From the IMG/VR virus record IMGVR_UViG_3300035670_000511: a stretch of DNA of 41,119 nucleotides; one strand, 5' to 3'. This DNA comes from a virus. Made by a program: the position numbers and the translations under genes. This document shows, in pieces, positions 1 to 41,119 of the stretch (positions within the stretch are counted from its first letter, which is position 1; each line of letters begins with the position of its first letter). The notes beneath the pieces are model-generated. The model made no database searches and was not told the DNA's origin. It saw only the letters and a list, made by a program, of their open reading frames with translations.

Positions 1-127
1 CTCGTTGCAGTATTGACTAATCGAATAAAAGTCATAGCGGTCAAGGCTGCTGGCTGGAACGCTGGCGCCGTAACGGGTGTTGGTGAGCAAATCCCACAGA
101 CACCAAGCTGGGTCGTTGCACCAAGTC
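1..127. repeat. Left copy of a 127-bp exact terminal direct repeat (identical to 40993-41119). This is an assembly-type overlap that closes the sequence into a 40,992-bp circle.
   Basis: I compared the two ends base by base. All 127 positions match, and the identity stops at the window edge. Confidence 0.95.
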
Positions 128-1446
128 GCAGCGCCAAAAGTTCCATCCCAAACGCCTGCGTAAGTGACCCGCCCAATGTGAGTTGTTGTGTCAACCGTGG
201 CGTTGCTTGGCAACTGAATTTTGATGCCGCGAATCAGGTACTTACGTGGCGGGATGCTGTTGAAATCACGCGCATCAAAACGAAGGCCAACGAGTGCGCT
301 GTTTGGGTAGCGCAGTTTTTCGTCAATAATTTCTGTGTAACTTTGCCAATAGGTTTCGTTTTGGCGCTTTGCGGAGGATTCGTCGCCACTTAAACGAATG
401 ATGCGAACATCAACGGGAAACGCTCCATCGAAACCAACGTTGTAATCGCGCTGGTAAGAGTTGTTTGTTTTGCCGCTGATCGTGTCAGTCAGAACGTCTG
501 TATAACCGCCACCGTTGTATTGGATTTGAATTTTAAGTTCAACGCTATGGCCGACAATATCGCCGTCATCTTCAATAATTTGCAGGGCTGGAACTTGAAC
601 AGTTACACGAACGCGGTCAACATCGGTATCGGTGACGGTTCTGGTTATTGGTGTGTTGTAGAAGAGTTGGACGCCAACGCTCTTTTCTGATTCCGCGCCT
701 CCTGTAAAACTTGCAATAGCGGCTTGGGATTGAGTGCCATTGCGGGTGGTGACTGTGTAGCCGCGAAAGTTATCGTTTCCAGCAGCGTCTACAACGGGCG
801 TTCCATCCAGATAAATGCTGTTGGCGCCATTGTCTAAACCTTGAATTTCACCTTCGCTGATTAGATCCAGAACGTTTGCGTACTGAATTGATTGCAGCGA
901 GTCGTCGGCTTCGGTTGGTGTACGGGACTGACCGCCACCACCACCTTTGCCACCACCGCCTCCGCCACCACCAGCACCAGCGATACCAAGACCGAGGCCG
1001 GCATTGTGGACGCGAACACCGTTGGCGATGAAGGTGTGATGCCCTTCGACCGTCAGGTTGTAGACCGTGCCAGTGCAGAATTCGGTCTTGCCGACGATGG
1101 GGCGGAGGTGGCCGTTGGCATCAACGAGGCAATCGTCAGAACCGAGCGTGTCGATTTCGACGAAGGCATTGAACTGGTTTAGAACCCAGTGGTTAGGGGT
1201 TGCATCAAGATGCTGTCCGCCCCAGAGCGTGTAGCGGATGACGCGCTCGTTTTCGTGTTCGTGAACCTTGAGGATCTTAACTTCGTGGACTTCGCCGGTG
1301 TGATCAAAGCTCAGGACCAGATCGCCAGCCTGCAGTTCATCAATCCGGCGTTGGCCGCCTGGAACGTTGACGAGCGTATGCCCTAGGAAGCAACCGCCAC
1401 CACCGCCGCCACCAGAACCTTGGATCATTTGGATATTGCGGGTCAT
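1..1446 (-). CDS. J: Tail-tip / host-specificity protein, lambda gpJ-like, 5' portion. It starts at the ATG at 1446 and continues through the circular junction into 41119..38671. The full gene is 3768 nt (1255 aa).
   Basis: The ATG overlaps the gpI stop (TAATG). The minus-strand frame is open from 1446 to position 1 and is in phase with ORF 38671..41082 across the 127-bp overlap (both have codon low coordinates = 1 mod 3). After the Hint insert the sequence reads ..KGGGGGQSRTPTEADDSLQSIQYANVLDLISEGEIQGL.. and ..PAWCLWDLLTNTRYG... As I recall it, this parallels the lambda gpJ N-terminus (MGKGSSKGHTPREAKDNLKS.., AWCLWDMLTHPRYG). It is absent from the ORF track because it has no in-window stop. 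Confidence 0.9.
   Translation of the reverse strand, partial: MTRNIQMIQGSGGGGGGGCFLGHTLVNVPGGQRRIDELQAGDLVLSFDHTGEVHEVKILKVHEHENERVIRYTLWGGQHLDATPNHWVLNQFNAFVEIDTLGSDDCLVDANGHLRPIVGKTEFCTGTVYNLTVEGHHTFIANGVRVHNAGLGLGIAGAGGGGGGGGKGGGGGQSRTPTEADDSLQSIQYANVLDLISEGEIQGLDNGANSIYLDGTPVVDAAGNDNFRGYTVTTRNGTQSQAAIASFTGGAESEKSVGVQLFYNTPITRTVTDTDVDRVRVTVQVPALQIIEDDGDIVGHSVELKIQIQYNGGGYTDVLTDTISGKTNNSYQRDYNVGFDGAFPVDVRIIRLSGDESSAKRQNETYWQSYTEIIDEKLRYPNSALVGLRFDARDFNSIPPRKYLIRGIKIQLPSNATVDTTTHIGRVTYAGVWDGTFGAATWCNDPAWCLWDLLTNTRYGASVPASSLDRYDFYSISQYCNE
1003..1392 (-). other. Hint / mini-intein-like (BIL-type) domain, residues C19-N148 of the J-like protein
   Basis: My own translation gives CFLGHTLVNVPGGQRRIDELQAGDLVLSFDHTGEVHEVKILKVHEHENERVIRYTLWGGQHLDATPNHWVLNQFNAFVEIDTLGSDDCLVDANGHLRPIVGKTEFCTGTVYNLTVEGHHTFIANGVRVHN. 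It shows intein blocks A (Cys1), B (TPNH), F (VYNLTVEGHHTFIANG) and G (HN). The +1 residue is Ala. It is preceded by GSGGGGGGG and followed by a second Gly-rich tract. Confidence 0.8.
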
Positions 1447-2153
1447 TAGCTCTTACGTGAACGGAAGAAAGCGGCGAAGAGTTCTTCTTGAACTTGTTGT
1501 TGACTCTTGGTTGCACCGTTGCCGGTGCTTTCAACATCAAGACCGCTGGAAATCACAGCCGAACCAACAAAAACTCGACCGTAGGCAATGGGAACAGGTA
1601 AGCCTTGTTTGGCGGTATTGACGATTCCACTAAAACTGAATGATTCGAGCTTGGCGGCTTCACGTCCGCGCTCAAACGGGGAAGTTGATTGCACCGGAGC
1701 TGGTGAAAGCGATTGCGCGATACCTCCAAGAACAAGACTGGCGCCGATACCAACAACAGCGGTGCCAACCGTTCCGATGCCCATGAATCCTCCCAAGGCA
1801 ACACCAGCAGACGCAATACCACCAGTGACGATTGCCAACGTTATTAGGCCAATGCCCGCAAAAATCTGAGCTGCGCCTTCGCCAGCGCCAACAATTACGG
1901 GCGTAATGCTAAATACTTCGCGCTCACTAAATGGAGCGGCAATCAACATTGCATTCTGTTCGGTAACTTTTTCTTTCCCGATTGTCACCCGATAGCCGAC
2001 ACCTTCTTTCTCGCTATCAATTAACCACTTTTCTAAACCCGGAAAATTAACGCACAAGGCTTTCAAAACCTGCGCGGGCGTATCAGCTTCAAACTGAAAA
2101 CGGCATTGACCCAGCTTTTTGCGGAGTGCGCCGTAGACCTTAACGACTTTCAT
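1446..2153 (-). CDS. I: Tail assembly protein, lambda gpI-like
   Basis: 235 aa. It lies between the K-like and J-like genes. It has a Gly/Ala/Ile-rich central segment and the C-terminal motif ..GLPVPIAYGRVFVGSAVIS.. typical of the gpI family. Its start and stop overlap the neighbouring genes. Confidence 0.75.
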   Translation of the reverse strand: MKVVKVYGALRKKLGQCRFQFEADTPAQVLKALCVNFPGLEKWLIDSEKEGVGYRVTIGKEKVTEQNAMLIAAPFSEREVFSITPVIVGAGEGAAQIFAGIGLITLAIVTGGIASAGVALGGFMGIGTVGTAVVGIGASLVLGGIAQSLSPAPVQSTSPFERGREAAKLESFSFSGIVNTAKQGLPVPIAYGRVFVGSAVISSGLDVESTGNGATKSQQQVQEELFAAFFRSRKS

Positions 2154-33744: not shown

Positions 33745-34872
33745 TCACCTCGGGCGGATTTTCATGAACCAGCCGGTGTCGTCGCCTTCGATGAGCCAAC
33801 GAGGCAGCCAGTTTTTGCGGGAGTAGACGACGCCCGCTCCACCCTTGTGGCTGACGTAACCGCCGCTGACGAGATTGGCCTCGCCGTAGGGGTCGTTGTG
33901 GATGAAGTGGGTGGGGGTGAAGCCGACGACAACGCTCCAGTGGCCGGTGCCAGAGGGGTTGCTGACGGGACCTTTGTGGAGCCAACCGACGGGGACGGGG
34001 TGGCCGTTGCTGATTTCATCCTCTAGTTCTTCGACCGTGCCATCCATCTCGAAGGTGGCGGTGAGTCCCAGGGCTTTGAGGGCGGCGATTTGGGCTTTGG
34101 GGTCGGTTGTATCACCGAAACGAGCACGGAGCTTGTTGTATTCATAATCGCCGCTTATTTTTCCGTAGTAGCGGGCCGCCATCGCGCAGCTGGAGCTGAA
34201 GCACTGGCGGTAGCCGGTGGCGCCGTCATCGGGTCCCAGCTGGTATTCGTATGCAACCTTTAGGACCTTTTCTTTTGGTTTGACGAGAGGTTTAGTTCCC
34301 GTATGTTGAGCCATCAGCTCGATCAACTTACTGGCGTAAGCCGGATCGGTTGCATACCCTTCTTTCACCAGCCAGTGGGCGGCGTCTTCGCGGGTACTGG
34401 CGTTGTTGCAGCCTTTGTAGGCTTTGAAGTCTTTGTACCAGTGGTCAACGAGATAGACGACGCAAGACAGCAGATCGGGGAAGTCGATGAAACTGTCGGT
34501 AATCGTGACCCATTGATTGTTAATGAACTCTTGAGTTTTGGTGTCGCTGCCTTCGCCCTTAAGGCCGAAGAAATTGTTGCGGCCTGAGACGAGTTTGCCC
34601 CAGCTGGATTCCAGTGCCCATTGGGCGGCGACGAGTTCGGGGAATTTGGCGCCAGCGACGCGGGCAGCTTCGAGCACGCCTTCCCAGGTGTTGGGGAAGC
34701 TGCTTTGCCTGCCGGCAACGCTCCAGGTTTTGAACCAGCCCTGGTCGCGGCCGAGAATGTGGGGGTTGGCCTTGTTGATGGCGAGTTCCAGCTCGGTTAG
34801 GGCGGCGAGCTGGTGCGGCAAACTCCGGTAATACCGAAATAGGTCAGTTAGGCGGATCTTGTTGGAAGCCAT
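33745..34872 (-). CDS. Bifunctional endolysin: N-acetylglucosaminidase (FlgJ/GH73-like) plus C39-like cysteine peptidase
   Basis: ..VAAQWALESSWGKLVSGRNNFFGLKG.. is the glucosaminidase signature. ..YRQCFSSSCAMAARYYG.. with ..GHWSVVVGF.. provides a Cys/His papain-like peptidase half. Confidence 0.75.
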   Translation of the reverse strand: MASNKIRLTDLFRYYRSLPHQLAALTELELAINKANPHILGRDQGWFKTWSVAGRQSSFPNTWEGVLEAARVAGAKFPELVAAQWALESSWGKLVSGRNNFFGLKGEGSDTKTQEFINNQWVTITDSFIDFPDLLSCVVYLVDHWYKDFKAYKGCNNASTREDAAHWLVKEGYATDPAYASKLIELMAQHTGTKPLVKPKEKVLKVAYEYQLGPDDGATGYRQCFSSSCAMAARYYGKISGDYEYNKLRARFGDTTDPKAQIAALKALGLTATFEMDGTVEELEDEISNGHPVPVGWLHKGPVSNPSGTGHWSVVVGFTPTHFIHNDPYGEANLVSGGYVSHKGGAGVVYSRKNWLPRWLIEGDDTGWFMKIRPR

Positions 34873-35125
34873 CGGACCAAGGAGAGCGGATACTCATGGG
34901 GCCGCCAAGAAGACGGCTGTCGCCGGTTTGTAGTTCGTCATTGATGGGTTCGTTAACGACAACGGGTTTTGTCGTTACTGGTTGAGCGTCGTGCCAGTCC
35001 TGGATGGTGCGGTCTAGGCGAGGTTTAAGGGTTGCGTGGAATTTGTGGTCCTGCGCTGCTTTACGCAGGTGATCCTTCCACGTCTTGTCGCCGAAACGCA
35101 CCAGCCAGGTGGTGTCGGCGTTCAA
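34844..35125 (-). CDS. Hypothetical protein in the lysis cassette (93 aa, TTG start)
   Basis: The ORF is coupled to both the holin-like gene (TTGA) and the endolysin (29-nt overlap). Confidence 0.4.
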   Translation of the reverse strand: MNADTTWLVRFGDKTWKDHLRKAAQDHKFHATLKPRLDRTIQDWHDAQPVTTKPVVVNEPINDELQTGDSRLLGGPMSIRSPWSDGFQQDPPN

Positions 35126-36764: not shown

Positions 36765-38636
36765 CTACGCCGCCTCAAGGGCTGCAACTTTGGCCTCAAG
36801 GGTTTCGATCTTGTCCTTAGCCTCCTGCAAAGCGGCAATCAGCAGTGGAGCAAGCAAATCGTATGAAACCCCAAGGTATTCAGTTTGGTCATCCGATCCG
36901 TATCTTTGCGTTTTACTGACAATTTCAGGCAGCACTGCTTCAACATCTTGAGCAATAACGCCAACATTTGTCGTCTGATTTGGATCGTCTTTCCAAGAGA
37001 ATTTGACGGCTCTTATGCTTGCAACTTTTTCCAAACCATTGGAAAGAGGTTCAATAATGTCCTTAAGGCGCTCATCGGAACTTGAGGTCCATGATGTGCC
37101 GCCCGCCGAAACATACGGTCCTCCCGTAAATGTGATTGTGTTTCCACCTGTATTTGTGCCGCTAGTCGACACAATTTGGGTTGTTCCCGCGTTGGTAGGG
37201 TTAAATACAATTCCCTGCGAATAGCCAGTTGCTATGGCTTTATCAGCGCCGTCATAGTAAAAATTATTTGAAAAAATGGTAGAACCACCATTTGATACGG
37301 CTGTATCGCAGGCCGCCGCGCCGCGACCCATTTGAATTACCTGCCTGCTGGAAACCCATGCAGCCGGTCCCGAACTGCCAATTCCAACGGTTCCACCATT
37401 TGTAATCCTCATCCGCTCCGTCGGGCTGCTCGCTCCATCAGCGGTAGTGGAGAACACTAGGCGAGACGGCATGTCATCAGCGCCAGGTGTTCCGTCTACG
37501 GCTGCTGTTATGCTCGCGCCCGAAACAAATTCACTACCATCGCCGCCACTAAAAAACAAACCGCCAAGCTCGTCGTTATTGCTTACGAGACCAGCATCTG
37601 TTCTGCCGTGCGCCAAGAATAATTTAGGTCCGCCAGAATCGTTGTTGTCTCTCAGGATTGATAATGATGCTCCATTCAGGGATGTTGACTCAATTTGAAA
37701 CTGAGGTGTTGTTGAGGAGTTTTCAAAATTGGTCTTGGCACTAGACGTGCCAACTAACAGGCGTCCCGAGCTGTCGATGCGGACACGCTCTGATGCACCT
37801 GATTTAAAAGTAAAAGCGCCTGCGGTTACGTCACCTGCTGTAAAACGATATTCACCATCACCAAGACTGCCACCGCCAGCTAGCTTGGATATGCCGTAGA
37901 AATTAGCAGCATTGCCGTTAAATTGTATTTTTAAAGCATTAACGTCAGCAAAAGATAATGGCGCTCCGGGACTCGTAGTGCCAATCCCTACACGGCCTGA
38001 GGAGTCAATCACCGCACGCTCGGAGCCATTGACGCTGAATTGCATCTTGTCCGTTGAGTGGTCATAACGAATCTGACCAATAGCGTTGTTATCTGTATCG
38101 CCAAATAGCAAGCCTGGAGAGCCAGTGTTGCTGCTTTCAATCGAGATAAACGGGTTGCTTGCCGTGTTGTAGACGGTCAAATTTCGACTAGGCGTAGAAG
38201 TCCCCAGACCTACCCTGTTATTGGCGGCATCAACGTAGAGCGTGTTGCTGTCAATATCGACGTTGCCGTTGGAGTCGATGGTCAGGCGAGCCGTGCCGCC
38301 CGTTGAAATTCCGACCTGATTGGCACCAGGAGAGTAGAAGCCGGTATCGGTGCCGCTGTCCTTGAAGTAGATCGACGGAGCGCCAGCCGTGCCGTTTTCC
38401 AGTGCAATCGTGGACCATTCGCCGTCCAACTGAAATAGTGTGATCCAGCCCGAGTTCGCAGCGTTGCGAAGCTTGAGGAGGTTCGTGGTTGTGTCTGCCC
38501 ACCATTGGTAGGCGTACATGGTTGCCGGTTCGGTGGCGCCACTGTTTTGGCTGACGATTGCAGCCAGCGCATTGTTGAGATCGGAACGGACGGCAGCGCC
38601 GGTGCCGTTAGCAATCACATAATCGTGTTGAGCCAT
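36765..38636 (-). CDS. Tail fibre with a C-terminal S74-type intramolecular chaperone (self-cleaving) domain
   Basis: 623 aa. A conserved fibre N-terminus (MAQHDYVIANGTGAAVRSDLNNALAAI..) is followed by repeats of the R..IDS.GRVGIGT..P type. The C-terminus reads ..SSSDERLKDIIEPL..L..IRAVKFSWK....NVGVIAQDVEAVLPEIV.. plus a terminal coiled coil. Confidence 0.8.
   Translation of the reverse strand: MAQHDYVIANGTGAAVRSDLNNALAAIVSQNSGATEPATMYAYQWWADTTTNLLKLRNAANSGWITLFQLDGEWSTIALENGTAGAPSIYFKDSGTDTGFYSPGANQVGISTGGTARLTIDSNGNVDIDSNTLYVDAANNRVGLGTSTPSRNLTVYNTASNPFISIESSNTGSPGLLFGDTDNNAIGQIRYDHSTDKMQFSVNGSERAVIDSSGRVGIGTTSPGAPLSFADVNALKIQFNGNAANFYGISKLAGGGSLGDGEYRFTAGDVTAGAFTFKSGASERVRIDSSGRLLVGTSSAKTNFENSSTTPQFQIESTSLNGASLSILRDNNDSGGPKLFLAHGRTDAGLVSNNDELGGLFFSGGDGSEFVSGASITAAVDGTPGADDMPSRLVFSTTADGASSPTERMRITNGGTVGIGSSGPAAWVSSRQVIQMGRGAAACDTAVSNGGSTIFSNNFYYDGADKAIATGYSQGIVFNPTNAGTTQIVSTSGTNTGGNTITFTGGPYVSAGGTSWTSSSDERLKDIIEPLSNGLEKVASIRAVKFSWKDDPNQTTNVGVIAQDVEAVLPEIVSKTQRYGSDDQTEYLGVSYDLLAPLLIAALQEAKDKIETLEAKVAALEAA
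36768..37085 (-). other. Peptidase S74 / intramolecular chaperone auto-processing domain of the tail fibre (aa ~518-623)
   Basis: It has the SDERLK motif, GVIAQDV..V.PE.V, and a terminal heptad helix (..LQEAKDKIETLEAKVAALEAA). Confidence 0.7.
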
Positions 38637-38670
38637 GCCGAGTCCTTACAAGGACAGTATTTGTCCAACT

Positions 38671-41119
38671 TTAGCCGCCTCGGCCATAGCCAACCGCACT
38701 CCAGTTGAAGTTACGGCTAACGGCAGTTCCAGCCGAGTTTTTGAAGGTGACGGTGAAGCCGGTGCCGCTGATGCTGGTGACCTCAAAGAAATCGCCGGTT
38801 GCCATGTTTTGGGCGGTGATGCCGATGCTGGGGAGGTAGGCGTTGACCCCGCCGAGGCTTGCTGTTCCAGTCCAGAAGGCGTTGGTGAAGGTGATTGCCT
38901 TGGCGCCGGCACCGCTGCTGACTGCTCCATCGCTGTTTTCCGTGCGGCGTTGGAAGGTGGCGTCGTAGCCCAGTTCATCCACCAAGATGTTTTGATCGAT
39001 GGCACTGCTGCTGAGATCGGCGCGGAATTGAAAGCCGCGACCACGGAAGGCGCCGTTGACGAATTCTTGCCATGCGCCCCAAGTCGGGGTGCCGCTGGGG
39101 TTGTCGTTGGTGGAGCGCAGCATCAGCTTGGCGTTCACCTTGTCCGTAACGTCGCCGTCCCAGTCGGACCAGTCATCCACGGTGTTGGCTCGGGAGTCGA
39201 TCAGGTCGGATGGGTAATAGCCACGAGTGACGAAATAGCGCCGGAGATCGACAGAGAAGGTGTTGCCAAGGTCCAGTGTGCTGGCGAATGTGTAAGTGCC
39301 AGAGCTAGCCACCGGTCCAAGTACATCGAGCGTTGGGATCAGGTCAAAATCAACAATCGAATCAATTAAGGTCGTGCCATCCAGCGTGAGCGCGTCAAAC
39401 TCTTCGCTGTAGAAGGTGTCCGACTTGGTGCCTTGGAAGGATGGAACGTCTTGATCTTCGCGGCGGGTTTGGATTGTTAGCGGCGCGATGGTGTCGGGCA
39501 GGTCGATGATTACGCTGGCTTCGCTGGCTGATTGCCGCCCACCGTCATCTTCAAATTTCGCCAGCACCTCGCCTTCCACCAGCGGAATAATGGCCTCTGT
39601 TGAACTGCCGGATTTGGCGGGAATTAGGTCAACGCTGTTGCTCCATGTAGCCGTGCCATCGGTCAGGCTGCTGTGGCGGATGTGAATTTTGCCGCCAACT
39701 TTTACGTCAAGGTCAAGCGTTTCGGTCCAGCGAAGACGACCGGAGTTGTTATTGATTGCCTCAAAGGTCAGGTTTTGGACGTTGCCCGGCACTGCGGTTT
39801 TGCCGATCAGCGCGAACTGGGCGACGGCAATTTCACTGCCTTTGCTGAGATAGTTGAACGCCTGAACTTGAACGTAAAGCGTTCCGGAGCGTGTGTTTTT
39901 AATTTGCAGTGACGGTGAGGTTGTGTTGGCCTGCGTCCAGTTGTCGTTGTCGATTCTGTATTTGACGCGGAACTCGGTTACAAGTTGTTTGGGGCTGATC
40001 CAGCTCAGATCAAAGGCTGAAAATACGCTTTGGCCGTCTTGGTAAAGGTATTCCGTGCCAGTGATATTTCCCGGAGCGTTGGGTGCTGCCGAAAGATTAC
40101 TGATGTCGCGGGTGGTTAGTTTGTTATCGCTTTCAATCGCGTCGTAAATCGTGCTGTTGTACTGCAGCGCAGTTACGCCGTAAATGCCATCTTCGCCTTC
40201 GGCAACATTCAGCACGCGATATTGCTGAGCTTCGATGTCGCTGGTTTGGATCAGCCAGATGGCGTTGGCGTTGGGTGCTTCGCTAAATGCGCTGCTGACG
40301 TTGATGGTGGTGCCAGAGATGCTGCTAATGGTTTTGGTTTCCACTAAGCCGGTTGGCATCAGAACCGAAATTGTTGGACTGTTTGACAGATTGACGGTGA
40401 GGTTGGTGCTGCTGTCAACAGTGATGGCGGTTGTGGTGGCAGAACTGACGCGACCGCTGCGGCGTGATCCGGCTTTAAGCGGATCGGCAATGTCGATCAC
40501 CATGCCGGGGCGCAAGATGATGCCGCTGTCAATAGAGACCGAGAAGGTGACGGTTTCGGTCAGGTTTTGTTCGCTCAGTAGCGCCCATTTACCAGCCCGA
40601 TGCGCTTGACCTTGGCTGTAACAACCCAGCGCCTTTATATCCTTGTTAATGATGCCGTATTTGGCTACAGCTTCCGCATCTTCAACATATTCGTATTCAA
40701 CTTCGCCCAAGGTGTCGTAGGACTGCCAAGCAACAGTGGCGACCGTGTGACGTGCCTTTTGTGATGATCCGCTATACGCAAAAATGCCATCAACAACGTT
40801 GCTTGGTCCAAGTAAGTATTGGGAATCGGTTGGTTTGTCCTGCTGCAGTACCAGTGAGCCGGCACCGTAATACGCGATGCCACGGAACAGGCTGGTCATC
40901 TCTTGGATGACGTTGTAAACCTCGTCGCGGCTGTTAATCAATAAGTTGCAAGCGAAACGAGGCTCCAGTCCGCCTTTGCCGTTATCAACTAACTCGTTGC
41001 AGTATTGACTAATCGAATAAAAGTCATAGCGGTCAAGGCTGCTGGCTGGAACGCTGGCGCCGTAACGGGTGTTGGTGAGCAAATCCCACAGACACCAAGC
41101 TGGGTCGTTGCACCAAGTC
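38671..41119 (-). CDS. J: Tail-tip / host-specificity protein J-like, 3' portion (continuation of 1..1446 across the circular junction)
   Basis: The frame stays open above the track start (41082) to the window end. The overlap region encodes ..NDPAWCLWDLLTNTRYGASVPASSLDRYDFYSISQYCNELVDNGKGGLEPRFACNLLI.., which, as I recall it, is colinear with lambda gpJ (..WDMLTHPRYG...QYCDQSVPDGFGGTEPRITCNAYL..). Downstream motifs ..GCYSQGQAHRAGKW.. match lambda GCTSRGQAHRAGLW. Confidence 0.9.
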   Translation of the reverse strand, partial: TWCNDPAWCLWDLLTNTRYGASVPASSLDRYDFYSISQYCNELVDNGKGGLEPRFACNLLINSRDEVYNVIQEMTSLFRGIAYYGAGSLVLQQDKPTDSQYLLGPSNVVDGIFAYSGSSQKARHTVATVAWQSYDTLGEVEYEYVEDAEAVAKYGIINKDIKALGCYSQGQAHRAGKWALLSEQNLTETVTFSVSIDSGIILRPGMVIDIADPLKAGSRRSGRVSSATTTAITVDSSTNLTVNLSNSPTISVLMPTGLVETKTISSISGTTINVSSAFSEAPNANAIWLIQTSDIEAQQYRVLNVAEGEDGIYGVTALQYNSTIYDAIESDNKLTTRDISNLSAAPNAPGNITGTEYLYQDGQSVFSAFDLSWISPKQLVTEFRVKYRIDNDNWTQANTTSPSLQIKNTRSGTLYVQVQAFNYLSKGSEIAVAQFALIGKTAVPGNVQNLTFEAINNNSGRLRWTETLDLDVKVGGKIHIRHSSLTDGTATWSNSVDLIPAKSGSSTEAIIPLVEGEVLAKFEDDGGRQSASEASVIIDLPDTIAPLTIQTRREDQDVPSFQGTKSDTFYSEEFDALTLDGTTLIDSIVDFDLIPTLDVLGPVASSGTYTFASTLDLGNTFSVDLRRYFVTRGYYPSDLIDSRANTVDDWSDWDGDVTDKVNAKLMLRSTNDNPSGTPTWGAWQEFVNGAFRGRGFQFRADLSSSAIDQNILVDELGYDATFQRRTENSDGAVSSGAGAKAITFTNAFWTGTASLGGVNAYLPSIGITAQNMATGDFFEVTSISGTGFTVTFKNSAGTAVSRNFNWSAVGYGRGG
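40993..41119. repeat. Right copy of the 127-bp terminal direct repeat
   Basis: It is identical to 1-127. Confidence 0.95.

Follow-up and report, generated by a model that had tools for sequence, protein, structure and literature searches.

The window analyzed here, a 41,119-nucleotide stretch of viral DNA (IMG/VR record IMGVR_UViG_3300035670_000511), encodes on its minus strand a tip attachment protein of the lambda J type (hereafter J), the N-terminal leader of which accommodates a 130-residue Hint domain. The open reading frame (ORF) starts with the ATG at 1446-1444, which overlaps the stop codon of the upstream gpI gene as TAATG, and translation of the window gives MTRNIQMIQGSGGGGGGG-CFLGHTLV...VRVHN-AGLGLGIAGAGGGGGGGGKGGGGGQSRTPTEADDSLQS..., in exact agreement with an earlier note on this DNA. 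As that note had also pointed out, the ORF is missing from the ORF list because it extends past position 1. An exact 127-nt direct repeat at the two ends (1-127 and 40993-41119) indicates a closed circle of 40,992 bp, with the J gene split across the window ends; once these are joined, J comprises 1255 residues, resuming at 41119 and running down to about 38671 on the minus strand. The full-length protein contains the Pfam domains FNIII-A_GpJ, Phage-tail_3 and fn3, the first of which scored 139 bits in the search with the N-terminal part, and its residues 168-481 align with positions 2-309 of the lambda_TipJ profile, with an E-value of 9e-77, so that an otherwise complete J follows the Hint domain, as had been claimed. 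The assignment to the lambda J type is based on the homology of the N-terminal hub and FNIII-A domain and on the gene order gpM-L-K-I-J, the genes of the tape measure protein, gpM, gpL, gpK and gpI lying upstream of J on the same strand.

The segment C19-N148, encoded by exactly 1003-1392 (Cys19 codon 1392-1390, Asn148 codon 1005-1003), is a Hint domain of the horseshoe β-fold that lacks an endonuclease insert and has blocks A, B, F and G, all of which the earlier note had read correctly. Profile searches with the N-terminal 179 residues, of the kind that note had proposed, yielded four models above their cut-offs: Hint (33.3 bits, cut-off 29.7) and pretoxin HINT (PT-HINT, PF07591; 32.0 bits, cut-off 27.7) in Pfam, as well as intein_Cterm (29.1 bits, cut-off 15.6) and intein_Nterm (25.1 bits, cut-off 24.5) in NCBIfam. 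Compared to the isolated N-terminus, full-length J falls slightly below the Pfam gathering cut-offs, with 29.5 bits for Hint and 27.3 bits for PT-HINT (the latter scoring 32.0 and 29.4 bits on N-terminal fragments), which probably explains why the module is absent from routine annotation. A homing-endonuclease insert has no room within 130 residues, and a scan of ten large ORFs, a non-exhaustive sample of the genome, revealed no free-standing homing endonuclease.

An AlphaFold2 model of the Hint region, built with 35 homologues, is confident throughout residues 21-150, with predicted local distance difference test (pLDDT) values of 86-98 per 10-residue block. The values drop below 50 at residues 1-16 and 150-200, and both Gly-rich flanks are disordered in the model. 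Structural similarity search against the PDB using Foldseek revealed a series of BIL (bacterial intein-like) and mini-intein structures, with E-values from 7e-11 to 1e-9 and a probability of 1.0. The list is headed by Tetrahymena BUBL BIL2 (PDB 6y75/6tmm, E-value 7e-11) and the Clostridium thermocellum BIL (PDB 2lwy, TM-score of 0.87 and RMSD of 1.9 Å), followed by two mini-inteins, Ssp DnaB and gp41-1, and by the Hog domain of Hedgehog, the last likewise at a probability of 1.0. A sequence search of the PDB gave the same ranking, with BUBL BIL2 again the best match (E-value 3e-8). BIL domains are the nearest PDB relatives, with small margins over mini-inteins, and the label "bacterial intein-like" that had been attached to the segment is an apt one. 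The domain is not a Hog domain, as it ends in His-Asn followed by a Gly tract and has no sterol-recognition region.

Besides the fold, every catalytic residue is present in C19-N148. Residue invariance was counted from tblastn alignments of every locus fetched, the most distant at about 43% identity. Cys19 is found in 214 of 215 alignable loci, the sole exception being an alignment artefact, whereas Thr83 and His86 of block B are found in 219/219 and His147 and Asn148 of block G in 221/221. In block F, Val128, Asn130, Thr138 and Ile140 are invariant in 79 unique sequences, a set extracted by regular expression and biased by construction. The +1 residue is Ala149 (GCC) in the window, which the earlier note had already recognized as non-nucleophilic. 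The survey of J homologues and their +1 residues that it had suggested revealed a widespread module, and in 60 representative clusters (about 60 distinct 50%-identity protein clusters, from the best 150 of the 268 proteins described below) the position is taken by Gly (53), Ala (4), Lys (2) or Gln (1), never by Cys or Ser. Ala is typical of the window's clade and Gly of most other clades. The C. thermocellum BIL that Dassa et al. studied in 2004 reportedly has Ala natively at +1, like the window. A nucleophilic +1 residue occurs at one locus only, L087 (10001-10462), a divergent Hint-J (46-49% identity) whose contig was binned with an Aquiluna metagenome-assembled genome (MAG); its Thr could permit canonical class-1 splicing. 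The median pairwise ratio of nonsynonymous to synonymous substitutions (dN/dS) is 0.09 for the Hint domain, compared to 0.17 for the next 300 residues of J, and the domain is under strong purifying selection. Altogether, the invariant catalytic residues and the low dN/dS suggest that the domain has been kept as an active autoprocessing unit.

Table 1. Features of the J locus and its surroundings in the window
Feature	Position	Strand	Basis
N-extein = first J leader copy, MTRNIQMIQGSGGGGGGG, residues 1-18	1393..1446	-	Motif M..[IV]xG[AS]G(n), also the N-terminus of Hint-less J alleles
Hint domain, type-A-BIL-like mini-intein, C19-N148, 130 residues	1003..1392	-	Pfam, NCBIfam, PDB sequence matches, AlphaFold2, Foldseek
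Block A nucleophile Cys19, after Gly18	1390..1392	-	Conservation across loci
Block B T83-P-N-H86 (TxxH)	1189..1200	-	Conservation across loci
Block F VYNLTVEGHHTFIANG, residues 128-143	1018..1065	-	Invariant V128, N130, T138, I140
Block G His147-Asn148, predicted cyclizing Asn and C-terminal scissile bond	1003..1008	-	Conservation across loci
C-extein start, residues 149-173: +1 Ala149, linker AGLGLG, second leader copy IAGAGGGGGGGG, K-GGGGG; predicted disordered	928..1002	-	Translation, AlphaFold2
J body, residues 174-482, with FNIII-A_GpJ at residues 252-376	1..927	-	lambda_TipJ profile, Pfam
Rest of J up to residue 1255 and stop	38671..41119	-	Circular assembly, 40993-41119 repeats 1-127
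gpI-like tail assembly protein, directly upstream of J	1446..2153	-	PHROG 32; no Pfam match
gpK-like protein, Prok-JAB and NlpC/P60	2140..2853	-	Domain scan
Tail-fiber-like ORF just downstream of J, C-terminal Peptidase_S74 intramolecular-chaperone domain	36768..38645	-	60.5 bits

The (GGN)n tracts on either side of the Hint domain had been regarded as the scar of a domain insertion. Comparison of alleles argues otherwise and identifies them as the native N-terminal leader of J, M..IxGAGGGG-K-GGGG, which is uninterrupted in near-identical alleles without Hint. Among the 71 closest IMG/VR J loci, 18 are complete genes that lack the domain and start MTRILGAGGGGGGGGGGKGGGGGGGGSSRTPTEADD, while at least 47 carry it; the J of an isolate, Halomonas phage H4907, begins MSAAEWIEGAGGGGKGGGGSQRTP, likewise with an uninterrupted leader. 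The Hint domain is present or absent even among near-identical J alleles, as exemplified by the Hint-less L124 and the Hint-bearing L059, of which the first 13 codons are identical and the downstream J shares about 92% nucleotide identity. These numbers undercut the earlier idea of a new step in the maturation of the adsorption device, at least of an obligatory one. Since the leader is uninterrupted in the Hint-less alleles, the insert consists of Hint plus AGLGLGIAGA, located within the poly-Gly run, so that the domain has on each side a motif resembling the leader, [IV]-x-G-[AS]-G(n). Such a leader-like repeat follows Hint in 43 of the 60 clusters, and the two copies co-vary: IRGAGGGG/IRGAGGGG in L087, VIAGAGGGG/VIAGAGGGG in L086, IIGSKGG/IVGSKGG in L182 and IISGSGGG/TISGSGGG in L179. 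About 13 of the 60 have a direct HN-GGGGK junction without a second copy (e.g. P0072). Across the family the N-extein is 7-29 residues long, and the Gly tract downstream of Hint contains a conserved Lys that is also found in Hint-less J and in lambda J.

The sequence history of the Hint domain is decoupled from those of gpI and J. Between the window and one relative (L014), nucleotide identity is 87% in gpK, 68% in gpI, 95% in Hint and 69% in J, and the synonymous divergence (dS) is only 0.22 in Hint, compared to 2.4 in J and 2.0 in gpI. An island of identity at Hint recurs in several further genome pairs, whereas close relatives such as L003 are uniform; the breakpoints coincide with the Gly tracts. 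Comparison of 1446-2853 on the minus strand of the window with L012-L081 gave a dS of about 2 and 68-73% nucleotide identity for gpI and J, against about 0.6 and 85-87% for gpK and gpL. With a divergence far above that of gpK and gpL, gpI and J behave as a swapped module, and Hint remains as a conserved island between them. The identity island, combined with the presence/absence alleles, is what marks a cassette that is exchanged without its flanks. The wide spread and flank-independent evolution suggest a mobile element of the intein kind and not an invention of one lineage. Recombination in the flanking (GGN)n codon repeats may spread or remove the cassette without any endonuclease, a route that would also account for the duplication and homogenization of the flanks.

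The module is common in metagenomic viruses. The window's Hint is matched by 453 IMG/VR contigs, and a divergent Hint query matched 112, of which 80 were examined, the lowest of them about 43% identical to the Hint of the window. In the best 80 loci, 80/80 Hint domains share their reading frame with J, which there comprises about 1251-1283 residues. A collection with one genome per species (185,579 species) gave only about 11 matches. They include a 27-kb Oxalobacter sp. contig and prophage-like loci in a Castellaniella MAG and a betaproteobacterial MAG, where the contigs measure 704 and 131 kb; in these prophage-like loci, too, Hint is in frame with J. An exhaustive phmmer search of 1.84 billion cluster representatives found 268 proteins at an E-value ≤1e-10, and among the best 150 of them are 60 proteins of 850-3100 residues with one Hint at residues ~8-150; the cluster members examined are metagenomic sequences. 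No Hint-J was found in 50,697 GenBank phage records, where all 1747 tblastn matches of J begin near residue 175. Against the same phages, Hint alone matched a few unnamed proteins besides inteins encoded within terminase, helicase and portal genes, at ≤36% identity over the domain and, where annotated, in no tail gene; three Ruminococcus-phage matches fall in unnamed proteins. Megablast with the window's first 8 kb as query gave no match, and PHROGs has no family for the Hint-J module. In the literature searched, neither J nor any other tail-tip protein is described as carrying a Hint, BIL or intein, in line with the earlier note, which knew of no precedent on J.

Among known systems, type-A BILs (Amitai 2003, Dassa 2004) share most with the J Hint: a Hint fold of about 130 residues, Cys1, TxxH, a C-terminal His-Asn, the lack of both a +1 nucleophile and an endonuclease, and placement in a variable or flexible region. 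The C-terminal His-Asn without a +1 nucleophile is what defines type A (PMC4031507), and the J Hint has both features. However, type-A BILs reside in variable, often secreted, bacterial proteins, whereas the host of the J Hint is a phage tail-tip protein. In addition, the J Hint lies near the N-terminus (N-extein of 7-29 residues) and is flanked by a repeated host leader, and its allelic presence/absence and lateral exchange are demonstrated. The best match in both sequence and structure, BUBL BIL2, has the same GG-C junction at the N-terminal scissile bond, but differs in having ubiquitin-like flanks and forming Lys isopeptides, where the J Hint has a short Gly-rich N-extein and no ubiquitin-like domain.

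The class-1 mini-inteins of phages (gp41-1; terminase, helicase and portal inteins) resemble the J Hint in fold, in blocks A, B, F and G, in being phage-borne, and in allelic presence/absence and lateral movement. They differ in the +1 residue, which is Cys, Ser or Thr instead of Ala or Gly, and in sitting in a conserved active-site motif instead of a disordered leader; the non-nucleophilic Ala149 rules out a class-1 intein in the window. The pretoxin HINT, the Pfam model of which exceeds its cut-off on the N-terminal fragment and which is presumed to act by autoproteolytic release, sits just before a C-terminal toxin that is accompanied by an immunity gene (PMC3482391). By contrast, the J Hint is followed by a structural protein of 1100 residues with FNIII-A_GpJ, Phage-tail_3 and fn3 domains and no toxin, and the pretoxin identity was rejected on this architecture. 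A fusion of Hint with gpI was also rejected, the gpI stop codon being intact and overlapping the J start. The Peptidase_S74 chaperone domains of fibers and spikes are likewise autoproteolytic and removed from an adsorption protein during maturation, yet their fold and chemistry are unrelated. Moreover, the S74 domain is C-terminal and required for folding of the fiber or spike, whereas the J Hint is N-terminal and dispensable.

Taking these observations together, we consider it rather probable that the segment is a type-A-BIL-like, endonuclease-less and recombination-mobile Hint cassette in the J leader, optional for the phage and self-removing after translation. In this reading it behaves as a largely selfish or neutral passenger and not as an essential maturation device. 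Type-A BILs form an N-terminal thioester and undergo C-terminal cleavage by Asn cyclization, after which the freed amine may ligate the flanks, cleavage products being dominant (PMC4031507, PMC7664689). By analogy, Cys19 would form a thioester with Gly18 through an N-S acyl shift, helped by Thr83 and His86, and Asn148, helped by His147, would cyclize and break the Asn148-Ala149 bond. Without a +1 nucleophile no branched intermediate can arise, which would leave the thioester to be hydrolyzed or attacked by the freed amine of Ala149; hydrolysis, that is cleavage, would be expected to dominate over BIL-type ligation. The earlier statement that canonical splicing is impossible hence holds for the class-1 route, but does not extend to type-A BIL aminolysis, which ligates without a +1 nucleophile (PMC4031507, PMC7664689).

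Either route would leave J with a native-like leader, since the second leader copy follows Hint. A cleaved J would start AGLGLGIAGAGG..., and C-terminal cleavage alone would, in the window, expose AGLGLG-IAGAGGGGGGGG-K-GGGGG-QSRTP, a close mimic of the Hint-less MTR-ILGAGGGGGGGGGG-K-GGGGGGGG-SSRTP. We interpret the second leader copy as the way in which the host gene has adapted to a mainly cleaving element. Where the junction is a direct HN-GGGGK, as in about 13 clusters, the native leader would be regained only by ligation, and cleavage and ligation probably both occur across the family. Removal of the domain is also what the tail-tip structure leads one to expect. Together with the C-terminus of gpL, J's N-terminal region completes a domain, and a gpI trimer lies inside the tip cone (PMC10721106, PMC11101478), so that three 14-kDa Hint domains at this packed gpL/gpI junction would probably obstruct assembly. 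The common Hint-less alleles imply that the cassette is not an obligatory maturation step of J.

Several points weigh against this self-removing mobile cassette. The argument for processing is one from conservation, and the mode of transfer is conjectural, as no homing endonuclease was found in a profile scan that covered part of the genome. The low dS of Hint could partly reflect frequent replacement of the gpI/J module and not movement of Hint itself. In the ~13 of 60 clusters without a second copy, cleavage alone would cost J its M..IxGS leader, which favors ligation there; and if only C-terminal cleavage mattered, the invariance of Cys1 and TxxH would require that the two steps be coupled.

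The last two points at the same time speak for genuine protein splicing, in which Hint would be excised and the 18-residue leader efficiently ligated to Ala149 through type-A-BIL aminolysis, giving a mature J made of leader plus C-extein. Gly at -1, Ala or Gly at +1 and the flexible tracts would favor ligation, type-A BILs can splice (PMC4031507), and Cys1 and TxxH are as invariant as His-Asn, as expected if the thioester matters. Ligation across the HN-GGGGK junction would restore the exact Hint-less leader (e.g. P0072), and the +1 Thr of L087 would allow the class-1 route. We nonetheless regard efficient splicing as unlikely for the family, since reviews describe dominant cleavage for BILs without a +1 nucleophile (PMC4031507, PMC7664689) and efficient ligation makes the second leader copy hard to explain. 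In the window and in 43/60 clusters it would produce a duplicated leader, which is found in no Hint-less allele; the product in the window would differ from the Hint-less leader by 10 extra residues, AGLGLGIAGA. Less probable still is an exapted device of tail-tip assembly, whether a pro-domain or timing checkpoint that would hold J incompetent for assembly until cleaved upon docking to gpL, gpI or gpK, or an ATP-independent covalent transfer in which the Gly18 thioester would yield an isopeptide with a Lys in J, such as that of the Gly-Lys-Gly tract, or in a partner protein. The idea draws on the Lys isopeptides that the best PDB neighbor, BUBL BIL2, makes with ubiquitin-like domains, on the conserved Lys in the downstream Gly-Lys-Gly tract, on the very strong selection on Hint, on the tandem double Hints of some J proteins, and on the JAB domain of the adjacent gpK; gpI, too, is reported to have a ubiquitin-like domain (Iyer et al. 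2006). However, the conserved Lys is shared with Hint-less J and lambda J, an N-extein of 7-29 residues offers no domain to transfer, and nothing specific favors a BIL2-like thioester transfer. An assembly device is also difficult to reconcile with the frequency of Hint-less alleles in the same lineage, with a cassette that moves independently of gpI and J, and with the lack of a co-occurring accessory gene.

It is very unlikely that the domain stays on virion J as an extra N-terminal appendage or is an inactive relic. Flexible Gly linkers could let it dangle, and processing of J is deduced from sequence; but the catalytic residues are invariant and the dN/dS is about 0.09 down to ~43% identity, and J's N-terminal region sits at a packed junction inside the tip (PMC10721106). 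An artefact, be it a contig of chimeric origin or a small Hint gene standing separately upstream of J, is scarcely credible. Several database homologues are indeed short (140-270 residues) and some are frameshifted in the Gly tract, but these are either cut off at a contig end or frameshifted within the (GGN)n run. The best 80 IMG/VR loci, from many samples, and the prophage-like loci on the 131- and 704-kb contigs all carry Hint in frame with full-length J, which rules out a separate small gene or a programmed frameshift. Metagenomic gene calls frameshifted in the (GGN)n run directly after Hint include P0002, P0004, P0015 and P0021, probably owing to assembly or sequencing error, although slippage-prone repeats of this type could in principle uncouple Hint from J.

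Most known inteins and BILs reside in enzymes of replication, recombination and packaging or in secreted bacterial proteins. If the mobile-cassette reading is correct, a large and diverse Hint family resides in the adsorption and ejection organelle of siphophages; its members are spread over more than 500 viral contigs, fall into about 60 clusters at 50% identity and include tandem double copies. The chemistry would be that of known BILs and mini-inteins; new are the host protein, the position, the flanking-repeat architecture and the mode of spread. The family would offer BIL-type processing in a natural system, where Gly stands at -1 and Gly or Ala at +1. It would also exemplify a Hint cassette that lacks an endonuclease and is apparently mobile by recombination in (GGN)n codon repeats, and provide a case of a host gene seemingly adapted to a cleaving element by duplication of its own leader. 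It also calls for caution in annotation and in host-range engineering of J, as the module is easily overlooked when full-length J scores slightly below the Pfam cut-offs. Potentially, such domains could serve as compact 130-residue self-cleaving tags with minimal junction requirements.

Elsewhere in the window, the Peptidase_S74 domain of the tail-fiber-like ORF (Table 1) gives the adsorption apparatus of this phage a second self-cleaving module, unrelated to Hint. The ORF at 33748-34893 on the minus strand has glucosaminidase and Peptidase_C39-like cysteine-protease domains and is probably a two-domain endolysin.

Some homologues contain more than one Hint. P0052 (1624 residues) and P0061 (2029 residues) are J-type proteins with two tandem N-terminal Hints separated only by GGGGGKG, the second being inserted after the Lys of the Gly-Lys-Gly tract. 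Unrelated to J are signal-peptide proteins of about 870-1130 residues (P0058, P0085, P0088, P0092, P0124 and others), which contain 3-5 abutting Hints joined as ...HN-KG(G)-CF...; one of them has a Tim44-like domain. In L247 (717-2885), Hint follows a GGGGGGGGGGKGGGG tract in a different tail protein and the Gly-Lys-Gly tract is repeated after it, whereas its block F has an in-frame stop, due to either pseudogenization or a sequencing error. The 75-residue N-extein of this protein resembles the C-terminal motif of gpI, and the protein may be of an I-J-fusion or gene transfer agent (GTA)-like type.

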